Part shown: piece by piece, positions 8,594-56,705 of the stretch
How positions within the stretch are numbered: the first letter of the stretch is position 1
Layout of the letters: every line of letters starts with the position of its first letter
Virus record (IMG/VR): IMGVR_UViG_3300023047_000002
Origin: a virus
Taxonomy: Duplodnaviria > Caudoviricetes
Length of the DNA stretch: 64,000 nucleotides
Reading direction: 5' to 3' (one strand)
The notes under the pieces: generated by a model
Told to the model about the DNA's origin: nothing
Database searches by the model: none
The model's input: the letters and a program-made list of their open reading frames with translations, nothing else
Position numbers and translations under genes: made by a program

Positions 8594-8635
8594 GTGTTTG
8601 TCTCCTAATGGCGAAACGGTTTATCGACAAACACA

Positions 8636-8675
8636 TGTATAACACTCCCAACCTGTCAGAGGATGCACAGCACCA
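8636..8675 (-). promoter_or_regulatory. TGGTGCTG-box promoter upstream of 8593
   Basis: TGGTGCTG, 26 nt, then TG-t-TATACA. Confidence 0.65.
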
Positions 8676-8684
8676 TGACAAAGA

Positions 8685-9299: not shown

Positions 9300-9331
9300 T
9301 CTCCAACTATCGTAGTTTGGTTATTATCCTG

Positions 9332-9898
9332 CTAGTCCCACATGTCTAAATAATTTTCAGCGAGAAGCGAGAACCCTTCTTTTCGGATTCGATTATGCTC
9401 TTTCCATAATGATTCATCTGTGTCCTCTGTCTGGCCAGTCATATCAGAAAGAGATACTTCAAAAGCCATCTTTATCTTATTCAATACCTCATGCCATGTT
9501 TCAGGAGTCATTCCTGCTTTGTAACTCGCACCTTTTCTAATCCATACGTCCAAAGCAGGAATCGCAAATTCTGCCAAAGCACACCCGAACTCCCAACATG
9601 CGTATGGCGTAGGATATCCTTCCAACATGCAGAAGACAAAATCCATCGGATACCACAAGTCTCCGTCCTGTGCGGTTATTTCATGACACGTATCGTGAAG
9701 TGTCCATTTCGGAAACCAGGCATCCTCTTCAAGGTCGTCATCAGACGGAAACGTGTACGAACAAATGACCGTTTGACCGTCACTTAAACGAACCATGAAT
9801 TTGCCGAAATAAGGATTCCTATCGTCATTGAGTTCTGTTTTTACCTTGTACGGTCTTTCCTCTGAAAACTTTTTCCACTTGAATTGCTCAAGAGACAT
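9332..9898 (-). CDS. Hypothetical protein
   Basis: 188-aa ORF; C-terminal W..VL.KI..AF...G..LL..YL.MWD pattern common in phage proteins. Confidence 0.7.
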   Translation of the reverse strand: MSLEQFKWKKFSEERPYKVKTELNDDRNPYFGKFMVRLSDGQTVICSYTFPSDDDLEEDAWFPKWTLHDTCHEITAQDGDLWYPMDFVFCMLEGYPTPYACWEFGCALAEFAIPALDVWIRKGASYKAGMTPETWHEVLNKIKMAFEVSLSDMTGQTEDTDESLWKEHNRIRKEGFSLLAENYLDMWD

Positions 9899-35100: not shown

Positions 35101-35297
35101 TTTTCCAAGGATTTCAAAAACGACTTGTATGCCTTGTCCTGAGCATTAAAGTCTCTTTGAGACAAAGACAGTTTTTTAATAACACGACTGGATTCCCCCT
35201 CACATACGATGAACTGATACTCACAGTCCATGAAGTAATCCATCTTTCGTGCGTTTAACTCACGGTAAATAAAGTCAAGAAACTCTTTAAATTTCAT
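32190..35297 (-). CDS. 1035-aa multidomain protein with internal basic..Glu linkers (candidate head polyprotein)
   Basis: RGRRECAVKTGTIRKCES; VHERKTRVRHLRKTLEG; VFESRTRKYLRNRNSKGRNEA. Confidence 0.75.
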   Translation of the reverse strand: MKFKEFLDFIYRELNARKMDYFMDCEYQFIVCEGESSRVIKKLSLSQRDFNAQDKAYKSFLKSLEKTVRDALNTGMWSVTMRVAIADTFNGRGGNLGFFEMQSPRMSDWKVSDSTKNFITKALNQIDGGRGRRECAVKTGTIRKCESAGDATLMGLCKFVRSYGQCYIDVMGRSNFGIDHYVQIGIDKSGLFCITDKGEKVVAKHIRPSVFVKIADQLGVHERKTRVRHLRKTLEGFNDGDVEEIYDVDDNGNQVLVDRRVYGISIMPDQKGNIPLIEEIKIYVRFLKTGQVPRKSNLKPSSTSKQRLATLKAQYGDDWKSHVSSTDVAQPKDSDSLIVTDFSNKRVAMGNLKKLMIAAVKNDVISQEELLEILHPLNDNDTADSVRLSILRDNPELADILPVVFGDIDTKELEHGVGSHAHGMDFDDLLDDPSKHDAAARITGDSPKDPETGKRARTGGPGKRLEWEQSSYRAIAEQEANAYISTLTEVTGGQGSTKVVGREEALNKQDATDMIIAIQSDFQGKGSKATGRNFADAWMGDPSREDYGFDTEHAVYGGISVSFGGFARREPEIGKSGKPLRGGKVSYNVSGRGANAPDWSCSLSIKIAAPYIGSLDDPQAKHDLIPFCVSVSLGQVNGVQSVGRKKLGEHIDRVFSGLVKTRGRAYGCSLVDNVYNATAMCREVDADKQVEGLKFLIRCACAAFGECIDLVDGIDIDDSASIRNMVNVNVFESRTRKYLRNRNSKGRNEAMIYSKYEDYPIQELLEWVNMNGLPTIEEEITASDVNAFRERCADGWVKLNDNYIQQLLRDMRYIKKHTTSRRQFLTPSEKKELRDDMEDLFDAFKRFDDSIVDDPVAIFIRDNSNRGGKGSEMPYYIESSIRNCRDWVQDNKKDNEELAFYASDILDCLDQIEDSFNEKQYSCDASRLGYGDASFEINDDSSLPTYLDLLKGRGKVSMQDFEEMYEEVERIDGTVEAMFDLDLEQIDLLADSLHLDSDLEGLFKDLRDLWLNVIDAIDGFPGYLQNSLRLPWEKR

Positions 35298-38986: not shown

Positions 38987-40177
38987 TCATACACACTCAT
39001 ACGTAAAAGAAGCACAAGGAATTTCCTCAGATAAAACAAAACCCAACCTGCCCATCATACGAAGGCACACCTCACATGCAGGAGAAGTCTTGACGTAAGA
39101 TTCATGCATCTCAGGGTACATAAGGGCGAGCAATGAACGAAGGGAAAATCCCACCTGTGAAAACACACGTTCACGAACAATACAATCACGTCCAACCCAC
39201 ACAGGATATTTGCGGATAGCGGCTTTACGCTTCGAAGGCTGCATACATGTAACATCAGAAAACCATATCTCAGGCATCGTCAATTCTACAGCAAACCTAA
39301 ATGACTCTTCAGACGGATTTCTACGAACGGATGACGAACAAAACCAGGTCATGAACTCATTTAAGAATCTGTCCGTAAATCGAAAGTGGGATACCTTTGG
39401 GAACACACGCATGGTAAGTATCGGATACTTACAACAAACTTTACGGGAAGACAAAAGACGTGCATCGAACCGCAAGCACAGGTATGCACACCCACATTCA
39501 ACGTACATAAACGACTCCCTTTTATAATCACACGGCATAAGGTGTTCTACGAAAGGACTGTAGTCTATTCTTGAAAGAAACTCATCATTAGTATTTACAT
39601 CATTCATCACTTTGAAGTCATACTGACAATCCGACGTACCGGACGAATCACGCGCATACAGCAGAGAGTAAAATGTCGGAGAGAAACATTTAATAATGGA
39701 TTTCATCGTTACGTCTTCATCAGATAAAACCGTACCGTATGACGGATAATCGGCAACAGGAAACTTAACTCTGTTTACAGATGAAGACAGTAGAGAATGC
39801 AAACGCATACCTGCTGTTTCATTGAACTTAACACCAAAAGATGACAGCGTTATGGATGTACGTTGTTTGTGTGCAATGCATAAAGCAGGAACTTCTTCGT
39901 GCCTTACAGGGAACTTCCTTATTCTGTAAGAATGAAGGAGTTCTACGAAATGCTTACGTGCAGAAAGCATACGTTCACATTCACAGGAACAGTAACCTCT
40001 CTTGAAAAGTCTTTTAGGATACCAACCTTCCCTCTTGCACAGGACACAAACACACCGGTACATGCGTTTGGAATCATCACCTATACCATCGGTACGGATG
40101 TCACCGGTGAACCTTAACGTATGCGACATCCTTCCCTTTGGCACATCTGAGTTTCTTTTCATGCTGTCACATGTCAT
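38987..40177 (-). CDS. Cys-rich protein sharing a zinc-binding domain with the adjacent endonuclease
   Basis: SHTLRFTG..CVCVLC..WYPKRLF..CSCECER matches 40174..41946. Confidence 0.6.
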   Translation of the reverse strand: MTCDSMKRNSDVPKGRMSHTLRFTGDIRTDGIGDDSKRMYRCVCVLCKREGWYPKRLFKRGYCSCECERMLSARKHFVELLHSYRIRKFPVRHEEVPALCIAHKQRTSITLSSFGVKFNETAGMRLHSLLSSSVNRVKFPVADYPSYGTVLSDEDVTMKSIIKCFSPTFYSLLYARDSSGTSDCQYDFKVMNDVNTNDEFLSRIDYSPFVEHLMPCDYKRESFMYVECGCAYLCLRFDARLLSSRKVCCKYPILTMRVFPKVSHFRFTDRFLNEFMTWFCSSSVRRNPSEESFRFAVELTMPEIWFSDVTCMQPSKRKAAIRKYPVWVGRDCIVRERVFSQVGFSLRSLLALMYPEMHESYVKTSPACEVCLRMMGRLGFVLSEEIPCASFTYECV

Positions 40178-41946
40178 ACTGTACTCATATCATCGTCATA
40201 GTATTTAATCCACCTAATGTTGCCTGAACGAGTCACACGGAAGTAACCGAGCTTCTCCATGATGTAGATTTCCTTGCTAGATGCCCCGCATGATACAGCC
40301 TCCTCATAAAGTTCAGGATACCTTGCTTTCAATTTCTTTACCTGAACCTGCTCGCGCCTTACGACCGTAGACACTCCCCTTGCCCAATAGTATGGAAAAC
40401 TCACGTCTATACGTTCAAACCCCAAGCTCGCGTACATGCCTCCTGTGAACAAATCGCAGTCGGAGTAAGAAACAACGGAAGAAGGTCTGTATTCGCGCTC
40501 GAACGCACGAAGCAGCCTTGAGGCACCACCGACAACGGAATACCCATGACGAACTGAAAACCGAAGAAGCTCATACTGACCGCCGGTAAAGCGACCGTCC
40601 TTAAATTTCGGAAGACTGAAAGACATCATGCAGAACACCTCAGAGGTACCCTTGTCTGTAAGGGAATAGGTCACAGACACATTCGTCCTCGCATTAAGAC
40701 CCTGCATGTGATTGCATGAGTAGAAAGAAATCGCCTCTTCATGCGTGGCCTTTCTGATATCCAAGCAACGTGCGTACATAACTTTACGTGGAACCAGAAT
40801 ATCGTGCAGAAATGCCTTCCATGCGTCCTTACGTACATTCCAGGATGTCTGGTATATCTGTACAAGACGTATCCCCTTTGACATGCTATCCTTCCATTTC
40901 CTGTAATGGTATCGTCGGTCTGTACGTATCTTTTCTGAATGCCAGTAATCTCCGTTGCATTCTATCGCGAGGTTCATGGAAGGAATAAAGATGTCATACT
41001 CAAGCCCGTTTTCCATAACACTACGTTCATGCCGTCTGACAATTTCGGGTGATACAAGTGACATAACGTAATCAGACACCTCTTCCTCAAACGCACTTGT
41101 ACGACTGCCGCATTCAAGGCATACAGGCACACGATACTCATTGCTTATTATGTCCTTCATCCTCTTTGTGAACGGGTTTCCGCACACAGAACATTTAAGC
41201 GTGACCTCGTCGCTGTACAGATTGATTTCCTTTCTGTCCAGACGAACAAGTTCACTTTCCTTGAACAGAAGAGGACGTACCCATTCAGGGTATTCACGGG
41301 ATGCAACGAACGTCTCCTTATGAAGACATCCGCATGAACGGGTCATCCCGTTAAGCAGGAGTTTCCTTCTTACAGATACAACACTGCCGCAGTCACATAC
41401 GCAGTCATACCATACAGCAGGGTCATCATGTGGAGGATTTTCAGTTCTCTTTATGACTGTTAGCTTCCCGTACTTCGTTCCCTGCAGAAGATCACCACGA
41501 TTATACTTCGGATACTTCATGACACGGTACTTCTTCAGAATCTCTATGAAGTGCCTTCTTCGTTCCATAAGGCGTTCACAGTCACATTTGGCATAACCTA
41601 GTCTGAAAAGACGCTTTGTGTACCATGAGGATTTGCCACATACAGTGCATGTGCAGTAATACTGACGTACCCCTTCCGTCATCGCATTCCCGGTAAAAAC
41701 AAGCGTGTGGCTCGTGCTTCCTTCTGCATCATCAGACATGTCTGGAGACCTGCGTGACCCTTTCTCTCTTTTGCATACCTTGCATTGAGTCACTAACCCG
41801 CGTGTAAGACGGTTGTACTGCACAATATACTCATTTCCGCAGGAACATCGACATACTGCCCTCAATGCGCTCTGCTCACGATTTTCACCAATAACGGTCA
41901 GGTCTCCAAACACCTCACCTACAATGTTTTTAATTACTGTCGGCAT
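40174..41946 (-). CDS. Hef-like/Vsr-DUF559-type homing endonuclease with zinc-ribbon repeats and C-terminal GNAT-like domain
   Basis: G.LTVI..C.C.CG repeats; LEYDIFIP..NLAIECNGDYWHS; YELLRF..GGASRLL..SYSD..G.MY..LGF; adjacent to the capsid gene. Confidence 0.75.
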   Translation of the reverse strand: MPTVIKNIVGEVFGDLTVIGENREQSALRAVCRCSCGNEYIVQYNRLTRGLVTQCKVCKREKGSRRSPDMSDDAEGSTSHTLVFTGNAMTEGVRQYYCTCTVCGKSSWYTKRLFRLGYAKCDCERLMERRRHFIEILKKYRVMKYPKYNRGDLLQGTKYGKLTVIKRTENPPHDDPAVWYDCVCDCGSVVSVRRKLLLNGMTRSCGCLHKETFVASREYPEWVRPLLFKESELVRLDRKEINLYSDEVTLKCSVCGNPFTKRMKDIISNEYRVPVCLECGSRTSAFEEEVSDYVMSLVSPEIVRRHERSVMENGLEYDIFIPSMNLAIECNGDYWHSEKIRTDRRYHYRKWKDSMSKGIRLVQIYQTSWNVRKDAWKAFLHDILVPRKVMYARCLDIRKATHEEAISFYSCNHMQGLNARTNVSVTYSLTDKGTSEVFCMMSFSLPKFKDGRFTGGQYELLRFSVRHGYSVVGGASRLLRAFEREYRPSSVVSYSDCDLFTGGMYASLGFERIDVSFPYYWARGVSTVVRREQVQVKKLKARYPELYEEAVSCGASSKEIYIMEKLGYFRVTRSGNIRWIKYYDDDMSTV

Positions 41947-42164: not shown

Positions 42165-43622
42165 CTAATAACCCTTGATTTCACCACGAACGAGGAGTTC
42201 AGGACGGAGCATCTTATAAGCCCACATACTGATGAAGCCTGATTCGACAGTGAACGTATTTCTAGTCAACCAGTCTGTATGCATGATCGGTAAGTAGTCT
42301 GCGAGCAGTGCACAACTGTTCTCTAATATACTCTTATGACCAACTAAGTACTCGTTTTCACGAATATAAGGTGAACAAATAATCTTGAGTGAGTTATCAA
42401 GAACACCTGCAACGTAAGGACCGTTAGGATTCTCAACATAGTTCGGTTCGAAACGAGGACGACCAATGTTCATAAGAACGTTGAGACCTTCAATACCGAC
42501 AACCGCCCAGTTACCACGGAATTTGTAGCTCTTCTGGTAAATCTTGTTGGCACATTTCTGAAGCTCACCGCAGAAGCTCTCATCGTGTTCACGCTGTGAA
42601 ATGTAATTCGTGTTGGTGCGATCCCACATTGTGCGGTTACCGGCCTGACGCAGAAGGTTGTCAATAACCTCATTGTCACGTTCCTGTTTCATTTCCATTG
42701 TGCAGTTGTCAATAAGGGTCTTCTGAAGGTCAATACCGAAGCTGTTCTGATACATGTAACCTGCATCGAACGAATACTCAACACGGAGTTTGTGAGGAAG
42801 AGCATGAATCGGTTCGTTTCTCATACGGAACACAGGGCGACCAGCCAAAGAAGGAGCAGAACCCAAATCCTGAGTGTAATCAACGAACACACTTGAGAGT
42901 TTGGAAAAAGCATCATTCTCGGATGCAAACATCACAAGACCGCTGTCCGGATTAACTTCGAGGGTACCGGCCTTGAGAAGGTCACTACCGATAGGATAAC
43001 CCTGAGCGTCCAAAGCACGAAGTTCCCATGTGCTCGTGCCTGTTTTGCGAAGTGCATAACGTTTGCTCGAATCACCTGCATCAGTGAAGATAATCTGATT
43101 GTCAGCATCAATGAGCATAGGCATATGTGCAACATGCAATTCGACTTTTCCGCCCACGATCGTAGCGGGTTCACCACAGATACGACCAGAAGCAAAACGG
43201 TTGCGACTTGTGTGATTGACGGAAACGCCAAGGTCGTTAATCATCACGTTGCCCTGGAGATTGTCACCACGGCTGTCACCATAGGTCATTTCCCAGAAAG
43301 TAATCTGACCCTGAGGACTGTCGATAGGCTGCACCCAAATAAGGTCTTCAATAATCGAGGAAGCACTCATCTTGGCAATCATGTTAATCATGTGTTCGGG
43401 GAACCAAGAAATTCCGGACGGCTGAGAAATACCGCTGCGGATGATTCCTTCGTTCACACGTTTCTGACCCTCTTCAAGAACGCGGGCGGCGTTGTTGAAT
43501 GTCAAAAGAAGGGTGTCTTCCTGTGCCGAGGTAAGTTTACCACGAACATCAGTGACTTTCTTAACGTAGGATTCATAATTGCGTTTGAGAATGTTACGAT
43601 CTTCTTTAGTCAAAACTGCCAT
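42165..43622 (-). CDS. Major capsid protein (T4 gp23-like)
   Basis: VQPIDSPQGQI, HKLRVEYSFD, E...ERDNEVI, GNWAV, GP..AGVL, YLVGHK, YLP motifs; follows the protease gene. Confidence 0.92.
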   Translation of the reverse strand: MAVLTKEDRNILKRNYESYVKKVTDVRGKLTSAQEDTLLLTFNNAARVLEEGQKRVNEGIIRSGISQPSGISWFPEHMINMIAKMSASSIIEDLIWVQPIDSPQGQITFWEMTYGDSRGDNLQGNVMINDLGVSVNHTSRNRFASGRICGEPATIVGGKVELHVAHMPMLIDADNQIIFTDAGDSSKRYALRKTGTSTWELRALDAQGYPIGSDLLKAGTLEVNPDSGLVMFASENDAFSKLSSVFVDYTQDLGSAPSLAGRPVFRMRNEPIHALPHKLRVEYSFDAGYMYQNSFGIDLQKTLIDNCTMEMKQERDNEVIDNLLRQAGNRTMWDRTNTNYISQREHDESFCGELQKCANKIYQKSYKFRGNWAVVGIEGLNVLMNIGRPRFEPNYVENPNGPYVAGVLDNSLKIICSPYIRENEYLVGHKSILENSCALLADYLPIMHTDWLTRNTFTVESGFISMWAYKMLRPELLVRGEIKGY

Positions 43623-43635
43623 AAAAACTCTCCTT

Positions 43636-45165
43636 TCATTTCCCTTTACCGGTAAGGAACACCCCTCGGGCAGGGGCTATTTCGTGAACATCACGCTCAA
43701 AGTTAGATATACTGCGAACACGTCTTTCGTAAGACTTGCCGTTTCCTTTAGTTACTGCATTGTTATCAGCAAGCTCCGTAAGTCGGTCAGCGTCTATTCT
43801 GTATCGTTTCGATAGACGCTGTGTTGTTTCTTGAATGCAATCTTTACCTTCATCAGACATAAGGTCGCTTACGGGCACACGATGACTTTGTTTTTTATTG
43901 TTTACAGCTTCCGTCTTCATCTGTTTATGGTCAAAACGGGTACGTCGAATCTTGCCCGTCGATACCGATTCTACAGCTTCGTCAGTCTTCTTAACTGAAA
44001 CTTTCTGTAAAGAAGACTCACTTACACGTTTTACGATACACTGTGAACGCTTGTAAAGAGAATCAAGTTTACGTGCAAGAGACTCTGCTTTACATGCAAG
44101 CTCTGAATACCGTTCAAGGTAATGTGCCTGATAAATGTCTCTCTCAATACCGGAACGCAAACTTTCGTTACTACGCTTCAAGAACGCTTCATTTGCCTGT
44201 AAAGTTTCAACCTTTTCAGTGAGCGTCTCAATGGTTTCACGATAAGCATCAATATCCTGCTCCATACGGGCAATACGCATACCGTCCGTTTCCTTCTCAG
44301 ACGCGTGAGAGACAGACTCAAAGGCTTTACATGAACCAGAAGCATCCGTAGCTTTATCAGACGAAGACATAATAGCATCAATGCTGAGCTTTTTCGTGTT
44401 ATGGTTTGTTTCATCCTTGCGGTTCAGCGTAAGTGCGTTCACACCATTACTCTTACGGATAACAGAGTTTACTGCATCATCTGTACGTTTTTCAAGTTCC
44501 TGTGCCATATCACGCATACGGCTTTCAAAAGCAGGAATCTTTAATGCGGACAATGCCGCAACATTGCTTCTAAGCTCGCTTGTCGTCATAGACTCAAGCG
44601 ATTTGCTTTCCTGTACCTTTTCAAGGTGTGCGCACTTAAACCCAGGGTCTGGAACTGCATCGAACGTGATTAAGTCGTACTCAGTTTCCGACATCACTTC
44701 CGTATTGCCTTCCATTTTACTTTCTGCAAGAGCACGTGCTGAAATACCGATTTTGCTGCCGTAATCAATAAGCGTTTTAAGAATACGCCCTACCGGCGTG
44801 TCAAGAATAGCGAATCTTCCAAAAACGAGATGGTCGCTGTTCTCTGGGATCCAGATACGTTCCACAGACAAAGCAACCTCAGGGTATGCGATGTCAACAC
44901 GTGTCTCCGGATGTCCACCCTCGCCAAGCATACACTTATTCTTAATGGCCTCTTTGACCGGCGGATAATTGATTATCCTGTCCTCGATCAGCTTTCGGGA
45001 GTAGATGCGGTTGTTTTGGTTGACTTTTCCGAATTCCATGCAAGGCCCTTCCACGATGCATAAAGCATTGGAAGATTTGCCGGAACCCTTCTCGTCAACA
45101 CGCCGCATTTCACTCACGAGCGATTCCGTGACAAGACGTTTTGCTTGTGTTGTCTGTACTGGCAT
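43636..45165 (-). CDS. Prohead core protease (gp21-like, peptidase S77/U9) fused to a coiled-coil scaffold
   Basis: NQNNRIY, LGEGGHP, ILDTPVGRI, GISARA, FDAVPDPGF, then ~320 aa of coiled coil. Confidence 0.92.
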   Translation of the reverse strand: MPVQTTQAKRLVTESLVSEMRRVDEKGSGKSSNALCIVEGPCMEFGKVNQNNRIYSRKLIEDRIINYPPVKEAIKNKCMLGEGGHPETRVDIAYPEVALSVERIWIPENSDHLVFGRFAILDTPVGRILKTLIDYGSKIGISARALAESKMEGNTEVMSETEYDLITFDAVPDPGFKCAHLEKVQESKSLESMTTSELRSNVAALSALKIPAFESRMRDMAQELEKRTDDAVNSVIRKSNGVNALTLNRKDETNHNTKKLSIDAIMSSSDKATDASGSCKAFESVSHASEKETDGMRIARMEQDIDAYRETIETLTEKVETLQANEAFLKRSNESLRSGIERDIYQAHYLERYSELACKAESLARKLDSLYKRSQCIVKRVSESSLQKVSVKKTDEAVESVSTGKIRRTRFDHKQMKTEAVNNKKQSHRVPVSDLMSDEGKDCIQETTQRLSKRYRIDADRLTELADNNAVTKGNGKSYERRVRSISNFERDVHEIAPARGVFLTGKGK

Positions 45166-45269: not shown

Positions 45270-46619
45270 TCATTTCACCACGGCATCTAACATTTTATTC
45301 AGAAGAGAGGCAACCACTTCTATATAATCCCTCTGCAAGAAGGTGAATGCATAATAGAACGACTTATTATTAACATCGTGGGTGAGATCCAAGAAATTCA
45401 CAGTACTCTGGAAATGAACCTTTCGTACCGACATCGTGACTTTACCTGTCTGATTGAAATCCTTTATTGGAGTGTAATGCGCATAGGACAAAACATTTGA
45501 CCAGCTGAATTCCAAATCAATCGGGTAGGCATAAGACAAGTCTCTGAAATAATGACTGACAGACACCTTGATGTTGCAGGACTTTGCATTAGTAGGATAA
45601 TTATTCTGCTTCAACTGTTCCTCAATCGCATCAGCAAGAGCGTTAGTGGCTCTTTCATGTTCTCTGGACAGGTAATGTTTCTTTGAGGCGTCACGAATCA
45701 GTTTGTCCAGTCTGTCATTAGACCCCTTGATGAACCATGTCTTGAAAGCATCCACGGACATTTTCTCCAATTTGGATACATTGTCGGCTTCTGCATTAAT
45801 CTCCATATAGGTCTTCAGGTATGACCAGAATTCGTCCTGATCATAGGCATCCAATGTTCGTATGACGTTTGGAAGTTTAGTAGAAAAGTCATCAGTTACG
45901 GCCTGTTTACGGAAGTTGGGTACGATATCGTACACCAGGTCATTTACCGCTCCCACCTGCCATGCATTGAACTCCGTATCTACCCATAGGCAGTACAGAA
46001 GGTACAAGGCTTTTGAGAACATCTCCTTGTCCTTGGTATCCTCCAACGGACGCATGTTCTTGGCCTGACCTCTACTCATGTCGTCCTGACGCATCGGCGA
46101 ATCCCCTTCCCAGTGAAGTTCATCAAAGGCATGAACCATCTCATGTTGGAGAGTCTTTAGGGCTTCTCTGTCCACATCATTACCACGGGTGCTGAAGTAG
46201 GCATCGAAATTCGATGTTCGGATTTTCACCACAACATTCTGTGCTGCACAGAACCCTCCTGAGGATATAAGGGTTTCCCATATCAAGAAGTGATTTCTGT
46301 GTTGAAGTGCTGACAGAACATTATCCCAATATTCCTTAATTTCAGCATCGCTGGCCTTTGTATTTTTGCTAGTGATATCGTAATCCGAGAGAAGTACGAA
46401 ACACACGGACACTCTGTTGTAGTTGTTTTTCTTCACACTGTCTGGAACATCATCCACGGATTCTAGGTAGTAAACCGAATCGGCAACCCAACATCCGTCA
46501 GAAGGGTGTTTGTCTTCACGATATAAATTTTCCAAGGCGGCTTTAGCAGAATAGTACAAGGCCTTCAACCCAGACAAGTCATACTGAATACCGAACTTTT
46601 CCGATACGAATCTCAACAT
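45270..46619 (-). CDS. HEXXH zinc-peptidase-like protein
   Basis: TLQHEMVHAFD ... TEFNAW. Confidence 0.6.
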   Translation of the reverse strand: MLRFVSEKFGIQYDLSGLKALYYSAKAALENLYREDKHPSDGCWVADSVYYLESVDDVPDSVKKNNYNRVSVCFVLLSDYDITSKNTKASDAEIKEYWDNVLSALQHRNHFLIWETLISSGGFCAAQNVVVKIRTSNFDAYFSTRGNDVDREALKTLQHEMVHAFDELHWEGDSPMRQDDMSRGQAKNMRPLEDTKDKEMFSKALYLLYCLWVDTEFNAWQVGAVNDLVYDIVPNFRKQAVTDDFSTKLPNVIRTLDAYDQDEFWSYLKTYMEINAEADNVSKLEKMSVDAFKTWFIKGSNDRLDKLIRDASKKHYLSREHERATNALADAIEEQLKQNNYPTNAKSCNIKVSVSHYFRDLSYAYPIDLEFSWSNVLSYAHYTPIKDFNQTGKVTMSVRKVHFQSTVNFLDLTHDVNNKSFYYAFTFLQRDYIEVVASLLNKMLDAVVK

Positions 46620-46710
46620 AGAACATCTCTCCTACGACATTCCATACAAAACAAATACAACGGAATTAGATAATTTGAAAATTTCTGACGTGCATACAGA
46701 CCTAAAAACG

Positions 46711-46751
46711 TGGTGCTGATACGAGGAACAGATGCACACTCATGTTACAGT
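46711..46751 (+). promoter_or_regulatory. TGGTGCTG-box promoter upstream of 46785
   Basis: TGGTGCTG, 27 nt, then TG-t-TACAGT. Confidence 0.7.
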
Positions 46752-46784
46752 AGAGTCGCTTTCTTAACATACATGGAGGTGAGC

Positions 46785-47051
46785 ATGATAGACATAAAAG
46801 ACAAAATTGAATTTAACTTTCCATTCGCAACAAAAGTAAAAGGCAAAATGCACGATTACGAACCGATGACCGACAAGCAAGAAAGATACATCCGGGACAT
46901 CTGCAACTATATGGACATGGAGTTTCCTGAAGTAACCACAAAGGAAGAAGCATGTAAATGGCTTGAAGAAAATGTGCCAAGGTTCCACGCGGAGATTGCG
47001 TCAGATGAAGCACACATGCTGCACTTATACGAGAACTATGGCGACAGATAG
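46785..47051 (+). CDS. 88-aa protein, paralog of 49884..50153
   Basis: GGAGGTG RBS; NFPF..YEPMTDKQERYI..IC..TKEEAC.WL..DEAHM..GDR. Confidence 0.8.
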   Translation: MIDIKDKIEFNFPFATKVKGKMHDYEPMTDKQERYIRDICNYMDMEFPEVTTKEEACKWLEENVPRFHAEIASDEAHMLHLYENYGDR

Positions 47052-47052
47052 T

Positions 47053-47105
47053 TGAACTAACCAACCTCCTAAAGTCGTGTTGGCTTCAAACTTCAACGAA
47101 CAAGA
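47053..47105 (-). repeat. Degenerate IS605-like right end/omegaRNA 3' part
   Basis: TCTTGTTCGTTGAAGTTTGAAGCCAACACGACTTTAGGAGGTTGGTTAGTTCAA resembles 56902-56954. Confidence 0.65.
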
Positions 47106-47187
47106 TAATGAACACACGTATGCCTAGTTTCTGTTACATAAAGCATACGAAAAGCAAAACAGTACTAATATTTGAGAGAGTTGAATC

Positions 47188-49698
47188 ATGTCAGAACACA
47201 CAAAGAAGAACAGTCAAACACATACAGTGAAAGAATTTGCAGACACATTAAAGTCTTTCAAACCATTTTATCGCATGAAGACATGCACAATCGAACGAGA
47301 GGTAGAAGACATATACAACGAGGGAATATCCTTTTATTTCAAGGATGCAGACATTAAGCACCCTTACGAATGTGATGGAGTTATCTCAACCACATTCGGA
47401 CACGGAAATTTGCTAAAGATGATAATGGAATACAAGTATAACGAAGACATGAAGCAGAAGTCTGCTATTGCAAAAGTTCTTGTCCAAGTAGTGTTCTACC
47501 TCAAACGATTTGAGGATGCAGGAATGGAACTACCTAACGTAGTTATGGTAGGCGACATCAACGAATGCTTTGTCATGCACTCAAACGAACTTCTTAAATA
47601 CCTTGACTGGAATGTGAACTGGAAGACTGCACCGTCTGAAGCATATAAGAAATGCCCTGAAATGGTGCTTGATATCGTTGAAGACGAATCCATAAATCCC
47701 TACGTCTTCTGGATTGATGAGTCATTCGACTTTAAAGACGTTATCGCGAAAATTCACAACCTTTGTGAGAATGTGAAGCGTTATGTGCGTATCACAGAGC
47801 ATAATATTGCATCCATCTTTGAGTATTTCCGTGATCGTGTTCTGCTTAAAAAAGACGCTTTAAGTGCTAATGAACTGGTGACTGTATTTATCGGTCTGAT
47901 AACAAATGATGAAGCGTACTACCTCCATCCGAAAAAGAAAAACACCCTTATTACGCCTAACGGAAACATACCTGTCAACAGTGCTTCCTTTGTCTCATTC
48001 TTTGACCAGTATGCAAGGGAATACACGCCGCAAGAAAGAATGAACTTCACGGCGATTGCTGACCGTCTGATTGAGGATACAACTAGAAGAAGACAGGGTG
48101 CTTTCTTCACGCCAGTTCGGTTTACAGACTTTGCTCACCGCATGATTGAAAAAGAGTTGGGCGAGAATTGGCGTAATGAATACGTTGTTTACGATTGCTG
48201 TTGGGGAACAGGTGGACTGACAAGGGATTACCGCTTCAAAGAACTCTATTGCTCTACACTGGATAAAGGAGAGCTTGAATTGGGTTCGCGGTATAATCCA
48301 GAGGCAACCAAATGGCAAATGGACTTCTTGAATGACGGAGATGAGTGTTTTGACAAAGGTCTGATAAATGCTTTTGAACAAAACAAGCCTATTGTGTTCT
48401 TCATCAATCCGCCTTATGGAACTGCCTGTACTTATGATAATAAATCTAAAGGTGGAACGAATGATACATCGATTCGTGATAATATGACGGAAACTAAGTT
48501 TGGAGGTAGTGAAAATCTTCAACATCAGTTTATGTATCGCATAACAAAGCTAGTTCAGAAGTATAATCTTACGAATGCGTACTTTGCATTATTCTCTAAT
48601 CCAATCTGGCTATCAGGCGCAAAACAGGGTACGTTCTTGAAAAACTTTACATCACGTTGGGAATGTCTTGATGCTTATTTGTTTCAGGCGAGCCATTTTG
48701 CAGATGTTTCTGATGTTTGGGGTATTAGTCTTACTTTATGGAAATCAAATAGACAGGCAACACCAATTAAGGAATACAAACTAAAATTGATTGATATTCT
48801 TGACGATGGTTCTATTGATGTCATAGGAAGTCATGTTCTCTATAACTCAAGTTACTTTAATAAAGCTAATGATTGGGTTCGTGAACCTGTAAAAAGATTA
48901 AAAAGAACGGATTGTTTTCCACCTGTAACATCAGGATTGACCATTAAAGAGTGCAATATAAGGGCTAGTGGAATTGAAGGTCAGTTAGGGTATTGTTTGA
49001 ATAATGCAAATTCAATTCAAGACAATCAGCAGAAAGTGGCTATGTTTTCAACAACATACGGTAACGGTAACGGTCACGGTATATGTAAAGAGAACTTCAC
49101 CCGATGCACAGCACTGTTCACGGCTAGAAAACTCATTGAAAACACATGGATAAATCACGCAGACGAATATCTTGCACCGAACGAGAGTCATCCTGATTAC
49201 AAACGGTTTGAAGCAGACTCAATCGTGTATTCCCTGTTTGAGAATAAATCAAACCAAACGTCGATGCGTCAAATCACGTACAAAGGAAAGCTCTATGATA
49301 TTCCTAATGAGTTCTTCTGGATGTCTAAAGATACCATGATGGGTTTGGCTAATGAAAATCATGATGACTTCATGTTTAACGATGCACGGACAAGCAAAGA
49401 ACGGTATGTGTTTACGCTCTTGCAGAAGCCGGAGATAGCACAGCACTTATCCGAAACAGCAAAACGTCTTCTCGAACTAGCAACAGAGATGACGGTCAAA
49501 TCAATGAAGTATCGCACCCTGTTTGAATCAGACCATCCAGATTACCATATTCACACATGGGATGCAGGGTATTATCAGTTGAAGAACCTTTGGAAAGAAT
49601 ACCTGCCAGAAGACTTCAAGCGATTCCGCGATCTGTTCAAACAGTTCGGAAACGAATTGCGTCCATTGGTTTATGATTTAGGATTCTTACGTAAATAG
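47188..49698 (+). CDS. Fused endonuclease/N6-adenine methyltransferase (Type IIG/IIL-like)
   Basis: N-terminal CDG..MEYK (PD-(D/E)xK-like); GAFFTP; motif I YDCCWGTG; motif IV NPPY; TRD-like C-terminal half. Confidence 0.8.
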   Translation: MSEHTKKNSQTHTVKEFADTLKSFKPFYRMKTCTIEREVEDIYNEGISFYFKDADIKHPYECDGVISTTFGHGNLLKMIMEYKYNEDMKQKSAIAKVLVQVVFYLKRFEDAGMELPNVVMVGDINECFVMHSNELLKYLDWNVNWKTAPSEAYKKCPEMVLDIVEDESINPYVFWIDESFDFKDVIAKIHNLCENVKRYVRITEHNIASIFEYFRDRVLLKKDALSANELVTVFIGLITNDEAYYLHPKKKNTLITPNGNIPVNSASFVSFFDQYAREYTPQERMNFTAIADRLIEDTTRRRQGAFFTPVRFTDFAHRMIEKELGENWRNEYVVYDCCWGTGGLTRDYRFKELYCSTLDKGELELGSRYNPEATKWQMDFLNDGDECFDKGLINAFEQNKPIVFFINPPYGTACTYDNKSKGGTNDTSIRDNMTETKFGGSENLQHQFMYRITKLVQKYNLTNAYFALFSNPIWLSGAKQGTFLKNFTSRWECLDAYLFQASHFADVSDVWGISLTLWKSNRQATPIKEYKLKLIDILDDGSIDVIGSHVLYNSSYFNKANDWVREPVKRLKRTDCFPPVTSGLTIKECNIRASGIEGQLGYCLNNANSIQDNQQKVAMFSTTYGNGNGHGICKENFTRCTALFTARKLIENTWINHADEYLAPNESHPDYKRFEADSIVYSLFENKSNQTSMRQITYKGKLYDIPNEFFWMSKDTMMGLANENHDDFMFNDARTSKERYVFTLLQKPEIAQHLSETAKRLLELATEMTVKSMKYRTLFESDHPDYHIHTWDAGYYQLKNLWKEYLPEDFKRFRDLFKQFGNELRPLVYDLGFLRK

Positions 49699-49799
49699 GA
49701 ACGAAAACAAACGAATCTGCATGAAACAGAAACCTCTGTGTGACCTACGGGATGTGCGAACCAGAACACCAAAGACTATGTGATTGAAGGCATTTATCG

Positions 49800-49840
49800 T
49801 GGTGCTGTTTTAGAACACTGATAAACGCTTGTGGTATGAA
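49800..49840 (+). promoter_or_regulatory. TGGTGCTG-box promoter upstream of 49884
   Basis: TGGTGCTG, 27 nt, then TG-g-TATGAA. Confidence 0.7.
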
Positions 49841-49883
49841 CGTATGAGGGATTAAACGCTTATTAAAGAAAGGATCTTGGGGT

Positions 49884-50153
49884 ATGAATGACGACAACAC
49901 AAAACATATTGCAGACAATTTCCCTTTCGTTACTGTATTTCGTAAACGAGTACCATGCTATGAAGCAATGACCATAAAGCAGGAACGCTACATCACGAAA
50001 ATATGCCATTACCTCGATATCGACATACCAAACATCGCAACAAAAGAGGATGCATGTGAATGGCTTAAAAAGTACATCCCAATTTACCAAAGACAGCTAA
50101 TCATAGACGAAGCACACATGATTTCATTTCACGAAGACGCGGGCGACCGGTAA
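49884..50153 (+). CDS. 89-aa protein, paralog of 46785..47051
   Basis: NFPF..YEAMTIKQERYI..TKEDACEWL..DEAHM..GDR. Confidence 0.8.
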   Translation: MNDDNTKHIADNFPFVTVFRKRVPCYEAMTIKQERYITKICHYLDIDIPNIATKEDACEWLKKYIPIYQRQLIIDEAHMISFHEDAGDR

Positions 50154-50185
50154 AAGGAAACGTATATAGACAGAAGGAACAAACA

Positions 50186-51289
50186 ATGAGTAACCAAATT
50201 CCATTCCGAATTAGAGGTATACGAGGGGTACAGTTAAACGACACTACGTACATTCTTGCGATGGACATAGCGGAACACTTTACACATCCTACAACGAAAT
50301 ACCCGGACGAATGGCAAAGCCTCAAATTGTCTAACGAGGTATGTCGTGAGTTCGGAATCGACTTTGACGATAAAACAGTACACGTCTATACGAAAGACAA
50401 GCTAAAACCATTTATTGACCGTCTATTTAACGAGTCTTACGCACGGTACAACGACAGCGAAAAACCACGTACTCCACAGGCCATAATGGAACTATTTGAC
50501 GTATATGCACTTTATGACGAACTGTTCCACCGTATCCCTGCTAAAAATTTGGAGTTCATCAAAGAAAACGCCGCTTCGGAATGGCTTGTTCGTTTGCTTC
50601 TGCTGTGTATTTCAGCACATCGAAATGACGCTGAGACGACAAGAAAAATCCTGAAATACGTCCATTCGCTTAACTGTGTTTCACCGCAAGAAGATGCGGA
50701 TATTCTTCGTGCAACGGAAGAGAACAAACAGCAACCGTTATGGGCTGCCATCACGAAAATGTTCTGTCAAACATGTGACTTGGTTTCACGAGAGCGTAAC
50801 GAGGTGTACAAAGTTCTTTCAGATTTCGATGCAACATATAGATCAACCATCGAGAAACACTTACCACAATGCGAAATCGGAGCAGGATGTGGACGTGCTT
50901 TGGTTGGGAATCTCGATATAATGGGAGATTACACGTATGAACTCTATGTGTGCATGTCGCAGGACAAGAAAGAAATTCCGCCACACGTCCACATCACACG
51001 ATACAACAAGCATACACGAAACGCAGATTATTGTTGGGACATTCGTGTATCGTTAATTGACGGCGGAATCTTTCCAAATGAAGAAAAGGGAAACAACGAA
51101 GTTGACTGTGCGGCTCTGCACAACTTCATGCATTCACTACGACCTTACGGATATCCAAACGACTTCACATACAAAACAGGGTATGCGCACTGTCTTGATT
51201 TACTTCGTGATGGGGCCGTAGCAAACGAACTTGGAAAGAAACCAATACCTAACTTCTTCCCGCAACATGTCGCAAATATCAACACGTAA
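50186..51289 (+). CDS. Hypothetical protein with C-terminal DUF4160-like PPHxH domain
   Basis: EIPPHVHI..IRVSLIDG; the N-terminus loosely resembles Bro-N. Confidence 0.55.
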   Translation: MSNQIPFRIRGIRGVQLNDTTYILAMDIAEHFTHPTTKYPDEWQSLKLSNEVCREFGIDFDDKTVHVYTKDKLKPFIDRLFNESYARYNDSEKPRTPQAIMELFDVYALYDELFHRIPAKNLEFIKENAASEWLVRLLLLCISAHRNDAETTRKILKYVHSLNCVSPQEDADILRATEENKQQPLWAAITKMFCQTCDLVSRERNEVYKVLSDFDATYRSTIEKHLPQCEIGAGCGRALVGNLDIMGDYTYELYVCMSQDKKEIPPHVHITRYNKHTRNADYCWDIRVSLIDGGIFPNEEKGNNEVDCAALHNFMHSLRPYGYPNDFTYKTGYAHCLDLLRDGAVANELGKKPIPNFFPQHVANINT

Positions 51290-51370: not shown

Positions 51371-52543
51371 CTAAAAACCGAGTGCCCCATTAATGTCGTG
51401 GAAATTCCATTTTCCGTTCCACATGTCGAATGTCCAGTCACGACTCGAAAGGGCACATCCTGTGTAGCTCTTGATTGGTTGTGCATGAGCACCTTTTTCC
51501 GAACCAGGCTTAGAAGGATCAGGAACAAACAGAGGCTCGCTTACACCTGGAACGAGTTTTCCGGATGAGCTTTTACCGATAGATGAAAGAACAACACGTC
51601 CTCCACGGAAACCCGTCACTTTAAAGTATGCTTTTCTTCCCCAACAATTACCGACAAACAAGTCACCGACTTTAAGACGCGACACGAACTGATCTTTCGA
51701 ACAATGCTCAGGATCAACCTCCGCATAACGCTGAGCGGCTTCATCGTCAGCAACATCAGCCATGCTTGCTTCGTTACGACGTACACGACGCATTCTACGT
51801 GACTCTTTTTTGCCTTTACCGAGCTGTGCATCAACAAGACCGATAATACCCTCACCCAGTTTGTCGAACTCAGGCTTATCAACGTCTACACTGACGATTT
51901 TCTTGTTTCCACTGTCGTCTTTAAGGGCTGCCTTGTCGTTTGAATAATCCAACTGAACGGTAACGCTTTCGTCTTCACCGTTTTTCGGGAACACTGTAAC
52001 GACAGCGGTTCCGTTATCTGTAACTGTGATTTCGACCTGACCGCCATCATAGTACTTTGTCAGCATTGCATCTACGGCTTTCATAGTGTCCGTGAAACCA
52101 CCTTCATAATCGGTACGTACAGACTCACGGCGTGTGCGACGTTTTACACTTCTTCCTTCATCGACATACTGAGGTTCGAGCCACTGAAGTCCTGGAACAA
52201 CCCGATCTGCGTCAGGCATTTCACCCATGTCGAACTTTTCACCGGGAAGGAAGCTGCCATCCTCCTGCTCAACCATAAGCTGCTGCGACATGAAACCGCC
52301 ATCCTTGTAAGTTTTGGCGTAAATAACGCAGGTCGTGCCTTCATCGACTTCTGTAACTTCCATATAGCCCATATCGTTAAGCCAGATATAGACATAGACA
52401 CCTTGTTCTGCCATTCCTTTTTCGAGTTCTTCTGCAAACGAATACCACAAGTTGTGTGTATCATCTGCAATGGATTCGTTTTTAAGAACACGTTTATTAC
52501 GTTCATTAATTCGTTTGAATCGGTCACGATTAAAAAGAGTCAT
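51371..52543 (-). CDS. Three-domain protein with basic..Glu linkers (candidate head polyprotein)
   Basis: KRINERNKRVLKNES; VDEGRSVKRRTRRES; KKESRRMRRVRRNEA. Confidence 0.8.
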   Translation of the reverse strand: MTLFNRDRFKRINERNKRVLKNESIADDTHNLWYSFAEELEKGMAEQGVYVYIWLNDMGYMEVTEVDEGTTCVIYAKTYKDGGFMSQQLMVEQEDGSFLPGEKFDMGEMPDADRVVPGLQWLEPQYVDEGRSVKRRTRRESVRTDYEGGFTDTMKAVDAMLTKYYDGGQVEITVTDNGTAVVTVFPKNGEDESVTVQLDYSNDKAALKDDSGNKKIVSVDVDKPEFDKLGEGIIGLVDAQLGKGKKESRRMRRVRRNEASMADVADDEAAQRYAEVDPEHCSKDQFVSRLKVGDLFVGNCWGRKAYFKVTGFRGGRVVLSSIGKSSSGKLVPGVSEPLFVPDPSKPGSEKGAHAQPIKSYTGCALSSRDWTFDMWNGKWNFHDINGALGF

Positions 52544-52558
52544 AGGAAACCTCCTTAA

Positions 52559-54277
52559 TTACATGGTACGGAAAATGTCACTGATGATACTGTCAGCAAG
52601 TTCGGAAACACTGTTAAATTCAGCCACGTCATAAACTCCCATCATCTGATGAGTATCAGCATACCGAACCTCAACACGGTCCCAAATATCAATCTCGAAT
52701 TTCAAGTAATTACGTATCGTCAAGATACCACGATGTGCTGTCAACATCTTGTAGGAGCATGTGTACATGGAATTTATACCATGCTGTCGTTTATTTCGTT
52801 TAAACGCATCAACGAGAGCCGGCATGAGTTCCTCGTATTCAATACAGTTAGCTTCGTATTTTCTTCTGTAAGAACGAACGCTTCTTGACTCTTTTTTGCC
52901 CTTCTCAAGCAATGACTTTTTACTGTTCAAGTACGCTTTCACATCAGCTGCAGGAGACTGAGTATCTTCAACAATCTGAACGTCATCATAGACATCGAAC
53001 AAAGACACATGATTGCCGTGAACGCTTACACGGATGCACAGGATTTCTTCATCGCTGTGCCCGTTTGTGTAAGCATACGAACCAAACAGGATATAGTTAT
53101 GTGACTTGGTTTCGATATCAACCTTTGCGCACATGTTAAACGGAACTTTGAACCCAAAGAAGTCCTCCATAATGACGCTTGAGTTCAAGAAATCGAGCAT
53201 CACCTGTTTAATGTCGCTTATGGTTGAATTGGTATCCATGATACGTTCATTCGCACTGGTTTTCAGAGACGGACGAAGTTTGCGAAGTTCGTTCTTTCCA
53301 AACACAAGTGAATATTTTTCAAGTCTACGCTTGGATGTTCTACGTTTTGACTCGCCAGTAACGGTATCATACAACGAATCGTAGTCAATCTCATCTTCAG
53401 ACATACCATAATCGTCACGTGTCATTGGATTGAAGTCAAGGTTTTCATCAGGACGCTCGCACATGTAATCGACAGCAACAGATTCCCACAGGCGAGACCA
53501 CATGTCTTCAGCATGATTGCGTGGATGACACCATTCACGTAACTGCAATGTGATTACAGAAATCATATCCTTCAATGACATTTCACGAGACACTGTAACA
53601 ATGCCGTCAGAAGTAAGACCAAACTTTGGCAATTTCTTTGTCAAAGCATTGACCTTTGGGTCTTGCCAGTTAAAAGGAACAAGACCCGGTGATGTAATTT
53701 TCAGTTTTGAAAAAACAGTGTAATATTCTGCATTGTCATTTGCTCCAAGGGATTCAAGCATGGCAGAAATGGACAATTCTCTAACAGTTCCGTTATCTGC
53801 AATGGTGAACTCACGAACATCGACAGTCTCATCATTGCGACCAGTTCCCGGAGTGACATCCACACGAATTTCATCAAAGATGTCAGACATGCGGGCGTCA
53901 TCGTCATCTTTAAAGAAATTCGAGCAAACGATTTCAATGTCTTCTGCTGTTACATCAATGTGAGAAGCCAAAAGCTCCATGGCATCTTCACGGGTAGAGT
54001 TCGGATTGTCAGACAGAACAATCAGAGTTGGGTATAAAGGAATATTCCCATCCTGCTGCAAACGCATAAAGACAAACGTGAAATGACTTCCCAACACGTT
54101 TGAAATGTCTTCCTGCGTGCCTTTCGATACCTGTTCCAACGTCTGACGTGAAGGATAAAACACATCCCATCCATCACGAAGAAGAACGGTAGCGATTGCT
54201 TTTGCTGTCATCCAGTAGGTGCCAATATGGCTTTCGTACCGTTTGTTTACACGATTATATTTGTTTAATCTTATCAT
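52559..54277 (-). CDS. Multidomain protein with basic..Glu linkers (candidate head polyprotein)
   Basis: ATG 54277 with GGAG RBS; NRVNKRYES; GESKRRTSKRRLEK; KKESRSVRSYRRKYEA. Confidence 0.8.
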   Translation of the reverse strand: MIRLNKYNRVNKRYESHIGTYWMTAKAIATVLLRDGWDVFYPSRQTLEQVSKGTQEDISNVLGSHFTFVFMRLQQDGNIPLYPTLIVLSDNPNSTREDAMELLASHIDVTAEDIEIVCSNFFKDDDDARMSDIFDEIRVDVTPGTGRNDETVDVREFTIADNGTVRELSISAMLESLGANDNAEYYTVFSKLKITSPGLVPFNWQDPKVNALTKKLPKFGLTSDGIVTVSREMSLKDMISVITLQLREWCHPRNHAEDMWSRLWESVAVDYMCERPDENLDFNPMTRDDYGMSEDEIDYDSLYDTVTGESKRRTSKRRLEKYSLVFGKNELRKLRPSLKTSANERIMDTNSTISDIKQVMLDFLNSSVIMEDFFGFKVPFNMCAKVDIETKSHNYILFGSYAYTNGHSDEEILCIRVSVHGNHVSLFDVYDDVQIVEDTQSPAADVKAYLNSKKSLLEKGKKESRSVRSYRRKYEANCIEYEELMPALVDAFKRNKRQHGINSMYTCSYKMLTAHRGILTIRNYLKFEIDIWDRVEVRYADTHQMMGVYDVAEFNSVSELADSIISDIFRTM

Positions 54278-55519: not shown

Positions 55520-56545
55520 TCAGTCTTCATCACGAAGCTGCTCAAGCGTCCACTCTTCAAGTATCTGGACAGGCTCGACAACCTTTCCATCAAGAAGGTA
55601 TGACATATCCTCATTCATGCACAAGTCCAAAAGACGTTTTACACCTTTTGATGCCCCATACTGACCGCTTGTGAATGGATCCGCAGTAGAAACGAATTTA
55701 CCTGCTACAGATTTATTTTTTAACGTATCCATAAAGTCTTCATAACCTGAGCCAACGGCGGCTGAGATAAAAGCGTCAGATGCTTTAACCAAAAGAAGGC
55801 GTGATTGGACTTTTGCTTTTGGGTCGTCATGCAGGAAATCCCAGGCATCCTGAAATCCAACCTGCGGTTTGTTAGTCCTAAAGAACCTAAGGTTCGTCAT
55901 GCTTTCATCAGCATCAATGTAGTAATAGCAAAACTCAGCCGACATGCGTGCAGTTTTAAACACAGGGAACATAGCTTTTTCGTGTTCTGCAAAACGTGTA
56001 ATACTCAAGTCATCAATTCCAACGCTTTTACGGTTTACGATATCGGCATTATCACGCCATCGTTTACCATGACCACCCTCACGATTGCTTTCAAGCACTT
56101 CACGTAAATCAGAGTACTGCATGAATGTCAGTGCATGACACATTTCATGTGCCAGCGTGTCACGTAAATCATGCAGTGAATTGAACACCGTATCTTTGCT
56201 AATTGTTATTCCAGTCGAAACAAATCCGATACGTTGATTTACCCATCCATTTTCACGAAGATGGGTCATCGCTGAAAACACAGGAAGATAGCTGAAACAT
56301 CCAAGCGTACCAATACCTATACTGTCATACTTTACCCATTCATCCTTCCAACCGTTAAGTCGGAAATACCCATCGAAATAAAGGTCATCTATATCGTGAA
56401 ACAGATCAACAAGAAACACATCAGTCTTCCAATTTTCCCGGTCGATACGGTTTTTTATACGTCCACGTTTAGGTGGATTTGACTGCTGTGTATCGTCAGA
56501 TTCGTTTCGTTTATTCCGTATTGAATTTCGTTTTCTGATAAGCAT
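55520..56545 (-). CDS. SprT-like zinc metalloprotease with basic N-terminal tag
   Basis: DTLAHEMCH..GHGKRW; MLIRKRNSIRNKRNES. Confidence 0.75.
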   Translation of the reverse strand: MLIRKRNSIRNKRNESDDTQQSNPPKRGRIKNRIDRENWKTDVFLVDLFHDIDDLYFDGYFRLNGWKDEWVKYDSIGIGTLGCFSYLPVFSAMTHLRENGWVNQRIGFVSTGITISKDTVFNSLHDLRDTLAHEMCHALTFMQYSDLREVLESNREGGHGKRWRDNADIVNRKSVGIDDLSITRFAEHEKAMFPVFKTARMSAEFCYYYIDADESMTNLRFFRTNKPQVGFQDAWDFLHDDPKAKVQSRLLLVKASDAFISAAVGSGYEDFMDTLKNKSVAGKFVSTADPFTSGQYGASKGVKRLLDLCMNEDMSYLLDGKVVEPVQILEEWTLEQLRDED

Positions 56546-56705
56546 TGAGACTCCCAGCTCGTCGTCTGATAAAACAAACAGATTAAGACAGTATGTTTGA
56601 TTTATAATGATACGCAAACCACACGTTGATTTAGATGGTTTTGTAGTTCACGACAGGATGCATCTTCTTTGTCAAAGCCTATTTAACGCTTTTACGATTT
56701 ACCAT

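Follow-up and report, generated by a model that had tools for sequence, protein, structure and literature searches.

Glutamate-terminated basic tags separate shuffled modules in two candidate head-cargo polyproteins of an uncultured tailed phage

A 64,000-nucleotide stretch of DNA from an uncultured phage (IMG/VR record IMGVR_UViG_3300023047_000002; Duplodnaviria, Caudoviricetes), here called the window, carries two open reading frames (ORFs), ORF1 and ORF2, that adjoin head-assembly genes. We read them, with moderate confidence, as encoding modular internal-head cargo polyproteins that are cut by the prohead protease after the glutamate of a basic tag. One observation behind this reading is a junction rule. 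When junctions were anchored on the conserved first residues of the six module families that make up the two proteins (A, B, C, D1, D2 and D3), the residue directly before the module was Glu in all 79 of 79 distinct junction variants and Asp in none of them (0/79). These variants span approximately 25 different upstream contexts, N-terminal tags and internal linkers alike.

In the mechanism that we propose, a disordered tag rich in Arg and Lys, 10-35 amino acids (aa) long and invariably closed by Glu, stands before each module of ~100-300 aa. Like the capsid-targeting sequences of phage T4, the tag would carry its precursor to the core of the prohead, and the phage's serine protease of the gp21 type would next cleave behind the Glu of the tag, freeing the individual modules. 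The internal spacers would be the retained tags of the downstream modules, and would also be the joints at which modules fuse, split and are exchanged between genes and between phages. The basic tags seem to be a new version of the T4 ‘capsid address label plus cut site’, and a divergent targeting-plus-cleavage signal seems the most economical way to read them, although for such a signal the subsite preference of the protease would have to have shifted to basic residues at P2-P5. Release of a free peptide would need a second cut, at the upstream Glu of the spacer. We infer the location of the products in the virion, the targeting role of the tags, their cleavage and any release of free 11-12-aa peptides from the features described below.

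Anatomy of the two genes

The two genes lie on the minus strand and are laid out as follows.

51371..52543, minus strand: ORF1, 390 aa, a candidate cargo polyprotein arranged tag-A-spacer-B-spacer-C
52475..52543, minus strand: ORF1 N-terminal basic tag, aa 1-23; Glu23 is last, then Ser24
52157..52474, minus strand: module A, aa 24-129, net charge -17
52124..52156, minus strand: ORF1 spacer 1, aa 130-140, basic, flanked by Glu129 and Glu140
51803..52123, minus strand: module B, aa 141-247, net charge -8
51770..51802, minus strand: ORF1 spacer 2, aa 248-258, flanked by Glu247 and Glu258
51374..51769, minus strand: module C, aa 259-390, net charge +1
52559..54277, minus strand: ORF2, 572 aa, arranged tag-D1-spacer-D2-spacer-D3
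54233..54277, minus strand: ORF2 N-terminal basic tag, aa 1-15; Glu15 is last, then Ser16
53351..54232, minus strand: module D1, aa 16-309, net charge -28
53318..53350, minus strand: ORF2 spacer 1, aa 310-320, a clade-specific insertion in the alignment of homologues
52889..53317, minus strand: basic stretch and module D2, aa 321-463
52853..52888, minus strand: ORF2 spacer 2, aa 464-475, flanked by Glu463 and Glu475
52562..52852, minus strand: module D3, aa 476-572, net charge -3

Both ORFs, and all four linkers quoted in the original prediction for this locus, are present as it described them. Each of the four spacers is 11-12 aa long with a net charge of +4 to +5, has Glu directly before it and ends in Glu. 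The basic stretch that follows ORF2 spacer 1 runs to Glu344, and D2 proper comprises aa 345-463. The domains had been called acidic as a group, which holds for A, B and D1; C, D2 (net charge -2) and D3 are near neutral.

A strong AAGGAGG ribosome-binding site lies upstream of ORF1, and the fused form of this gene recurs in several independent assemblies (P0001-P0004). For ORF2, sequence comparison places the start at the ATG at 54277: a longer ORF beginning with GTG at 54403 was considered and set aside because it overlaps the upstream gene and because the homologues begin at the residue equivalent to the ATG. Nested translation or pausing at the spacers is not indicated, since the spacers contain neither Shine-Dalgarno-like internal starts nor unusual Arg codons.

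The modules have few known relations, and the window as a whole is without a close relative among the GenBank phages. Searches of both ORFs by blastn and tblastn against 50,697 GenBank phage records gave no match, Pfam and PHROGs gave no family for ORF1, ORF2 or six neighbouring large ORFs, and no usable match for the modules was obtained from the ESM Atlas.

A glutamate before every module

Profile-profile comparison among A, B, C, D2 and D3 gave no significant similarity, the best pair being A and B (E=0.012), so the junction Glu that they share is not explained by detectable homology. In relatives, the spacers drift in both length (8-16 aa) and sequence and yet keep their basic charge and both flanking Glu residues, which points to selection on these features. 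All internal linkers examined have a Glu immediately ahead of their basic residues. Within the junctions, Lys or Arg predominates at P3, and P2 is occupied by Asn, Tyr, Lys, Arg or Met. The junctions do not conform to the known cleavage motifs of prohead proteases (L/I-x-E in T4; S/A/G-x-E in phiKZ and SPN3US), which are matched at only a few sites, such as the Ala-Phe-Glu sites in the extension of the phage's own protease.

The junction type was also assessed statistically, by counting sites in which Glu is followed by Ser, Ala or Gly and at least three of the six residues before it are Lys or Arg. Against a null of 5000 residue shuffles, ORF1 has four such sites where 0.24 are expected (P=2e-4), and ORF2 has three where 0.18 are expected (P=6e-4). 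Seven of the ten sites in the window fall in these two genes, and another lies in a neighbouring SprT-like gene. The signal is thus local and does not reflect a genome-wide compositional effect.

Elsewhere in the window, a 1035-aa ORF with no assigned family (32190-35297, minus strand) has one internal spacer of the same form near residue ~733, in which Glu-Ser is followed by 17 basic-rich residues and then Glu-Ala. Judged by its sequence, this gene may encode a further polyprotein.

Modules are shuffled at the spacers

The main result comes from comparison with homologues. These were drawn from metagenomes, and genomic context was read on three viral contigs (L001-L008). At least eight alternative architectures were found, all of which break exactly at spacers: X-A-B-C, A-C, B-D, X-A, X-B-D3, D1-D2, D1-D3, and B joined to unrelated modules. 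X-A-B-C occurs in P0003. In P0005 and P0006, A is followed directly by C, without B, whilst in P0007 a tagged B is followed by a D3-like module, and four proteins (P0008-P0011) have X-A and end within a basic spacer. B has at least five unrelated fusion partners in all; by alignment, it is joined to at least four unrelated modules in P0066, P0067, P0069 and P0070. D1 is present in all 53 homologues of ORF2, making it the most widely conserved module; it is found with D2 and without D3 in the 445-aa family (P0017), and with D3 and without D2 in P0016 and the 465-aa family (P0050). In contig L005, D3 is the C-terminal module of a different gene (8001-9353), where it lies behind X and B. The suggestion that small cargo genes have been concatenated is thus borne out to the extent that the modules are combined differently among relatives, and in sequence comparison the spacers are the boundaries of the modules.

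Some modules also occur alone. Tagged stand-alone genes were found for A (L005:9369-9800, 143 aa; P0068; P0072) and for B (P0065; P0071; L008:9929-10363). For D2 and D3 there were no stand-alone forms among the shorter proteins searched. In L005, the N-terminal tag of the stand-alone A gene matches the linker found between X and A in the X-A fusions, and because these two are homologous the internal spacers can be regarded as the same entity as the N-terminal tags. The original prediction, that the linkers are counterparts of the tags of stand-alone genes, is in this respect well founded.

The DNA itself also bears on the exchange of modules. The top direct repeat of the locus, 37 nt with 76% identity, links ORF1 spacer 2 with ORF2 spacer 2, and holds an identical 17-nt core that encodes their Lys-Lys-Glu-Ser edge. 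This repeat is consistent with the spacers acting as recombination joints. Identity to a 234-kb relative is uneven along ORF2 (92% for D1, 67% for D2 and 79% for D3), which gives a hint of mosaicism.

Two further observations concern module B. The stand-alone B gene of L008 belongs to a distant, low-GC phage and lies near genes at 7840-9198 and 9215-9601. The first of these, beside the B gene, encodes 452 aa with several basic runs ending in Glu-Ser, Glu-Ala or Glu-Met between segments, one of which matches the C-terminal module of P0069; the nrdD gene of this contig contains a large insertion of intein-like appearance, a candidate intein. A bacterial repeat protein (P0074) that matched module B weakly, with E=2e-4, was rejected, the similarity being judged to reflect beta-strand composition and not homology.

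Cut once, twice or not at all

The exchange of modules at the linkers, and the repeat with its identical core shared by the two second spacers, also suit a reading in which the spacers are never cleaved. They could then be flexible basic linkers or arms that bind DNA or RNA or mask the acidic modules, or else neutral fusion scars kept as recombination joints, and the case for cleavage is itself indirect. This reading is unlikely in our judgement. It leaves unexplained why an invariant Glu, and never Asp, stands before six unrelated modules, and why the same tags are found on stand-alone genes and on a neighbour of the capsid module; nor does it account for the selection apparent in spacers whose charge and Glu residues persist through drift in sequence and length.

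At the other extreme, both Glu sites of every spacer could be cut, and the free 11-12-aa Arg-rich peptides could stay in the head and neutralize or condense the DNA, like adenovirus mu. Such a reading calls for the Glu that was seen immediately ahead of the basic residues in all internal linkers examined, and the proteins of the stand-alone A and B genes close with a basic tail that follows directly on a Glu. There is also a precedent: in the adenovirus mu precursor (pX), two sites for the viral protease bracket a highly basic middle fragment, which is freed by the two cuts and released in the capsid (PMC7998265). As in pX, two conserved Glu residues flank each spacer here, with no homology between the proteins; the comparison is one of analogy only, since adenovirus infects eukaryotes and uses a cysteine protease and another cleavage motif, and its basic peptide is a product and not a linker. 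We nevertheless hold the double-cut reading to be quite unlikely. Several of the upstream sites do not have the basic P2-P4 context of the module-proximal sites, the T4 propeptides are thought to exit the head (PMC9026906), and retention in the head and DNA binding find no support. We estimate that peptides with about 6 charges each, if present in numbers like those of T4, would balance no more than a few percent of the ~486,000 genome phosphates. The protamine-like neutralization of packaged DNA that had been suggested for these peptides is unsupported. An extended version, in which the spacers are cut on both sides and the free Arg-rich peptides stay on the genome as a tailed-phage counterpart of adenovirus mu and protamines, while the tag DNA provides exon-like joints that reshuffle injected and possibly anti-defence modules, strikes us as improbable when taken as a whole.

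Predicted structure

In the AlphaFold2 models the predicted local distance difference test score (pLDDT) of ORF1 is below 50 at residues 1-30, 126-150 and 244-271, which contain the tag and both spacers, between blocks that score 55-78. ORF2 scores 33-39 at residues 460-480, containing spacer 2, between D2 (58-81) and D3 (83-90); D1 is poorly modelled. The tags and three of the four spacers are thus putatively disordered between folded blocks. The claim that the linkers are disordered, and do not lie inside folded domains, accordingly stands for three of the four, the model being uninformative for ORF2 spacer 1.

A, B, D2 and D3 are each predicted to fold as a helix, five strands and a helix (alpha-beta5-alpha). 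This shared topology is only a hint of a common origin of the modules, because the profile-profile comparison was not significant. A Foldseek search of the Protein Data Bank with the ORF1 model returned nothing at E <=0.001. With the ORF2 model, a wide VIA-align search matched D3 to generic alpha-beta5-alpha sandwiches at Z <=8.2, among them the folds of actin-capping protein, frataxin and type III secretion chaperones.

The head protease and its neighbours

The following genes of the head region bear on the proposed processing.

43636..45165, minus strand: prohead protease of the S77/S80, gp21-like type (PHROG 207, 4e-37; Pfam Peptidase_S77, 5e-13, and S80, 3e-7)
42165..43622, minus strand: gp23-like major capsid protein (Pfam Gp23, 1.4e-24)
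55520..56617, minus strand: SprT-like HExxH metallopeptidase gene (Pfam SprT-like, 1.9e-9); probable start near 56545

The protease matches the T4 gp21 structure 5jbl (E=4e-4), and its His85 and Ser142 are conserved in L005, inside motifs that align to gp21. Judged on these alignments, the window phage encodes a prohead serine protease of the gp21 family that retains the catalytic His and Ser, and this enzyme is the candidate for processing ORF1 and ORF2. The protease and capsid genes are on the same strand as ORF1 and ORF2 and 6-9 kb away from them; in the related contig L005 (227.6 kb), the homologues of the cargo genes are found immediately upstream of those for the protease and the capsid protein.

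Both head proteins carry candidate sites of their own. Residues 214-509 of the protease hold a C-terminal extension of 280 aa with many Glu-Ser pairs, probably a scaffold-like coiled coil. Over its full length the protein contains 18 pairs of Glu with Ser, Ala or Gly, several of them conserved in L005; among the conserved sites are a Glu-Ser that immediately follows the catalytic domain and a run of basic residues whose closing Glu stands 19 aa before the C-terminus. The extension and its sites suggest self-processing and a fused scaffold. In the capsid protein, a basic pair-x-x-Glu followed by Gly or Ser is conserved at Glu58, before the conserved core; this residue is a candidate for the end of a propeptide of about 58 aa, a position comparable to the end of the 65-residue propeptide of T4 gp23 (PMC9026906).

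The SprT-like protein has a basic N-terminal tag of the same type, ending in Glu-Ser, and a further basic run that closes with Glu before its conserved core (window 55520-56617; L005:4272-5363). From its sequence, it may be a protease that is packaged in the capsid and injected.

Another enzyme could also be supposed to cut the linkers. Candidates are the tagged SprT-like metallopeptidase, the HExxH protein beside the head protease, and a host enzyme that attacks disordered basic segments. Two HExxH proteins do flank the locus (55520-56617 and 45270-46619), and for polyvalent proteins packaged in capsids, processing by embedded zincin-like peptidases has been proposed (PMC5512222). Cutting by another enzyme is very unlikely, however: the SprT-like protein, being itself tagged, looks like cargo and not like a processor. 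Moreover, a strict Glu at P1 is a hallmark of prohead proteases of the gp21/gp175 type and is not, to our knowledge, a feature of SprT-type enzymes.

Three other parts of the region may be mentioned. The HExxH protein directly upstream of the prohead protease (45270-46619, minus strand; 449 aa, HExxH at residue 159) belongs to no Pfam or PHROG family and is 87.5% identical to its L005 homologue; no other gene of the module is so well conserved. Three plus-strand ORFs of 113, 836 and 367 aa (46710-51289), without family matches, split the minus-strand head module and are absent from the same position in L005; from its sequence and position, the segment looks like an inserted accessory island. 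Directly downstream of the capsid gene (38987-41946, minus strand) are a large gene resembling HNH homing endonucleases (PHROG 559, 1e-76) and a 396-aa ORF.

Points against the cargo polyprotein reading

A number of points weigh against the reading of ORF1 and ORF2 as head cargo cut at its tags. Its basis is sequence comparison and structure prediction for an uncultured phage. The modules matched no known family of virion proteins (Pfam, PHROGs, and tblastn against the GenBank phages), and in the more distant phage of L008 the tagged B gene adjoins nrdD and nrdG, not head genes. The residues before the junction Glu are mostly Lys or Arg, or variable, unlike those of the known motifs, so that a changed specificity of the protease must be assumed; in addition, the upstream edges of some spacers, with Asp or Gly before the Glu, do not have the basic context of the downstream sites. 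Over all 42 ORFs of the window the junction motif is not significantly enriched (10 sites observed against 5.8 +/- 2.3). Finally, the overall confidence of the structural models is low, with a mean pLDDT of 52.8 for ORF1 and 48.5 for ORF2, and in ORF2 the score is below 50 over residues 180-350, a long region in which spacer 1 lies and where the model gives no information.

Comparison with known systems

The closest parallel is with the internal proteins of T4. The capsid-targeting sequences of IPI, IPII, IPIII and Alt are removed by gp21 (Mullaney and Black 1996; PMC9026906); the propeptide of an internal protein, 10-20 aa long, targets it to the prohead core and is then cut off (PMC9026906). 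Prohead proteases of the T4 type cut after Glu, at L/I-x-E in T4 itself, where Asp at P1 blocks processing by gp21 (PMC9026906). The window phage resembles T4 in having short putative N-terminal propeptides (15 and 23 aa, known here from sequence alone) with Glu before the mature part, a gp21-family protease in the head module, unrelated and fast-evolving cargo proteins that share one common tag, and no Asp at P1. It differs in that the tags of T4, of 7-20 aa, are not Arg-rich and follow L/I-x-E, whereas those described here are strongly basic, measure 15-35 aa and are also found internally, between modules; each T4 cargo protein has a gene to itself and one tag, at its N-terminus. Searches with Pfam and PHROGs revealed no sequence homology to T4 internal proteins.

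Jumbo phages provide a precedent for more than one mature product per gene. The phiKZ protein gp162 is cut after Glu17 and Glu137 into fragments with separate roles (PMC11297242), and the motif of the prohead proteases of phiKZ and SPN3US is S/A/G-x-E or A-x-E (PMC11297242, PMC10052503). The phiKZ inner-body and minor capsid proteins gp162 and gp93, which are substrates of gp175, and the substrates of SPN3US gp245 are cut by a jumbo-phage prohead protease after Glu at several sites, as is proposed for the proteins described here. They have, however, neither basic spacers nor combinatorial small modules, nor any homology to the modules of ORF1 and ORF2, and every cleavage of a substrate in SPN3US takes off an N-terminal propeptide and nothing else (PMC10052503).

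There are also similarities to the polyvalent proteins of phages and conjugative elements (Iyer et al. 2017, PMC5512222), which likewise have multiple modules, are predicted to be packaged and injected, are shuffled and are sometimes proteolytically processed. Polyvalent proteins differ in having recognizable effector domains and embedded peptidases and in occurring in a MuF/portal or type IV secretion context. They are defined by several effector or anti-defence domains, and no known domain was found in ORF1 or ORF2 with Pfam or PHROGs. In the literature searched, neither Arg-rich, Glu-terminated tags nor tandem small cargo modules split by such tags are described.

Significance

If the tags work as proposed, they would constitute a second, chemically different code for capsid addressing and cleavage in heads of the T4 type, one that is rich in Arg and Lys and has Glu as its last residue. 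Several small cargo proteins would then be delivered as one precursor and separated in the prohead, for which we know of no earlier case. With such a code, proteins that are packaged and injected could be recognized in large uncultured phages by a rule that needs only their sequence, and these proteins would be likely host-takeover or anti-defence factors. The code would at the same time offer a compact tag by which foreign proteins could be loaded into capsids. The shuffling of modules at the tags suggests a route by which the cargo repertoires of these phages diversify.

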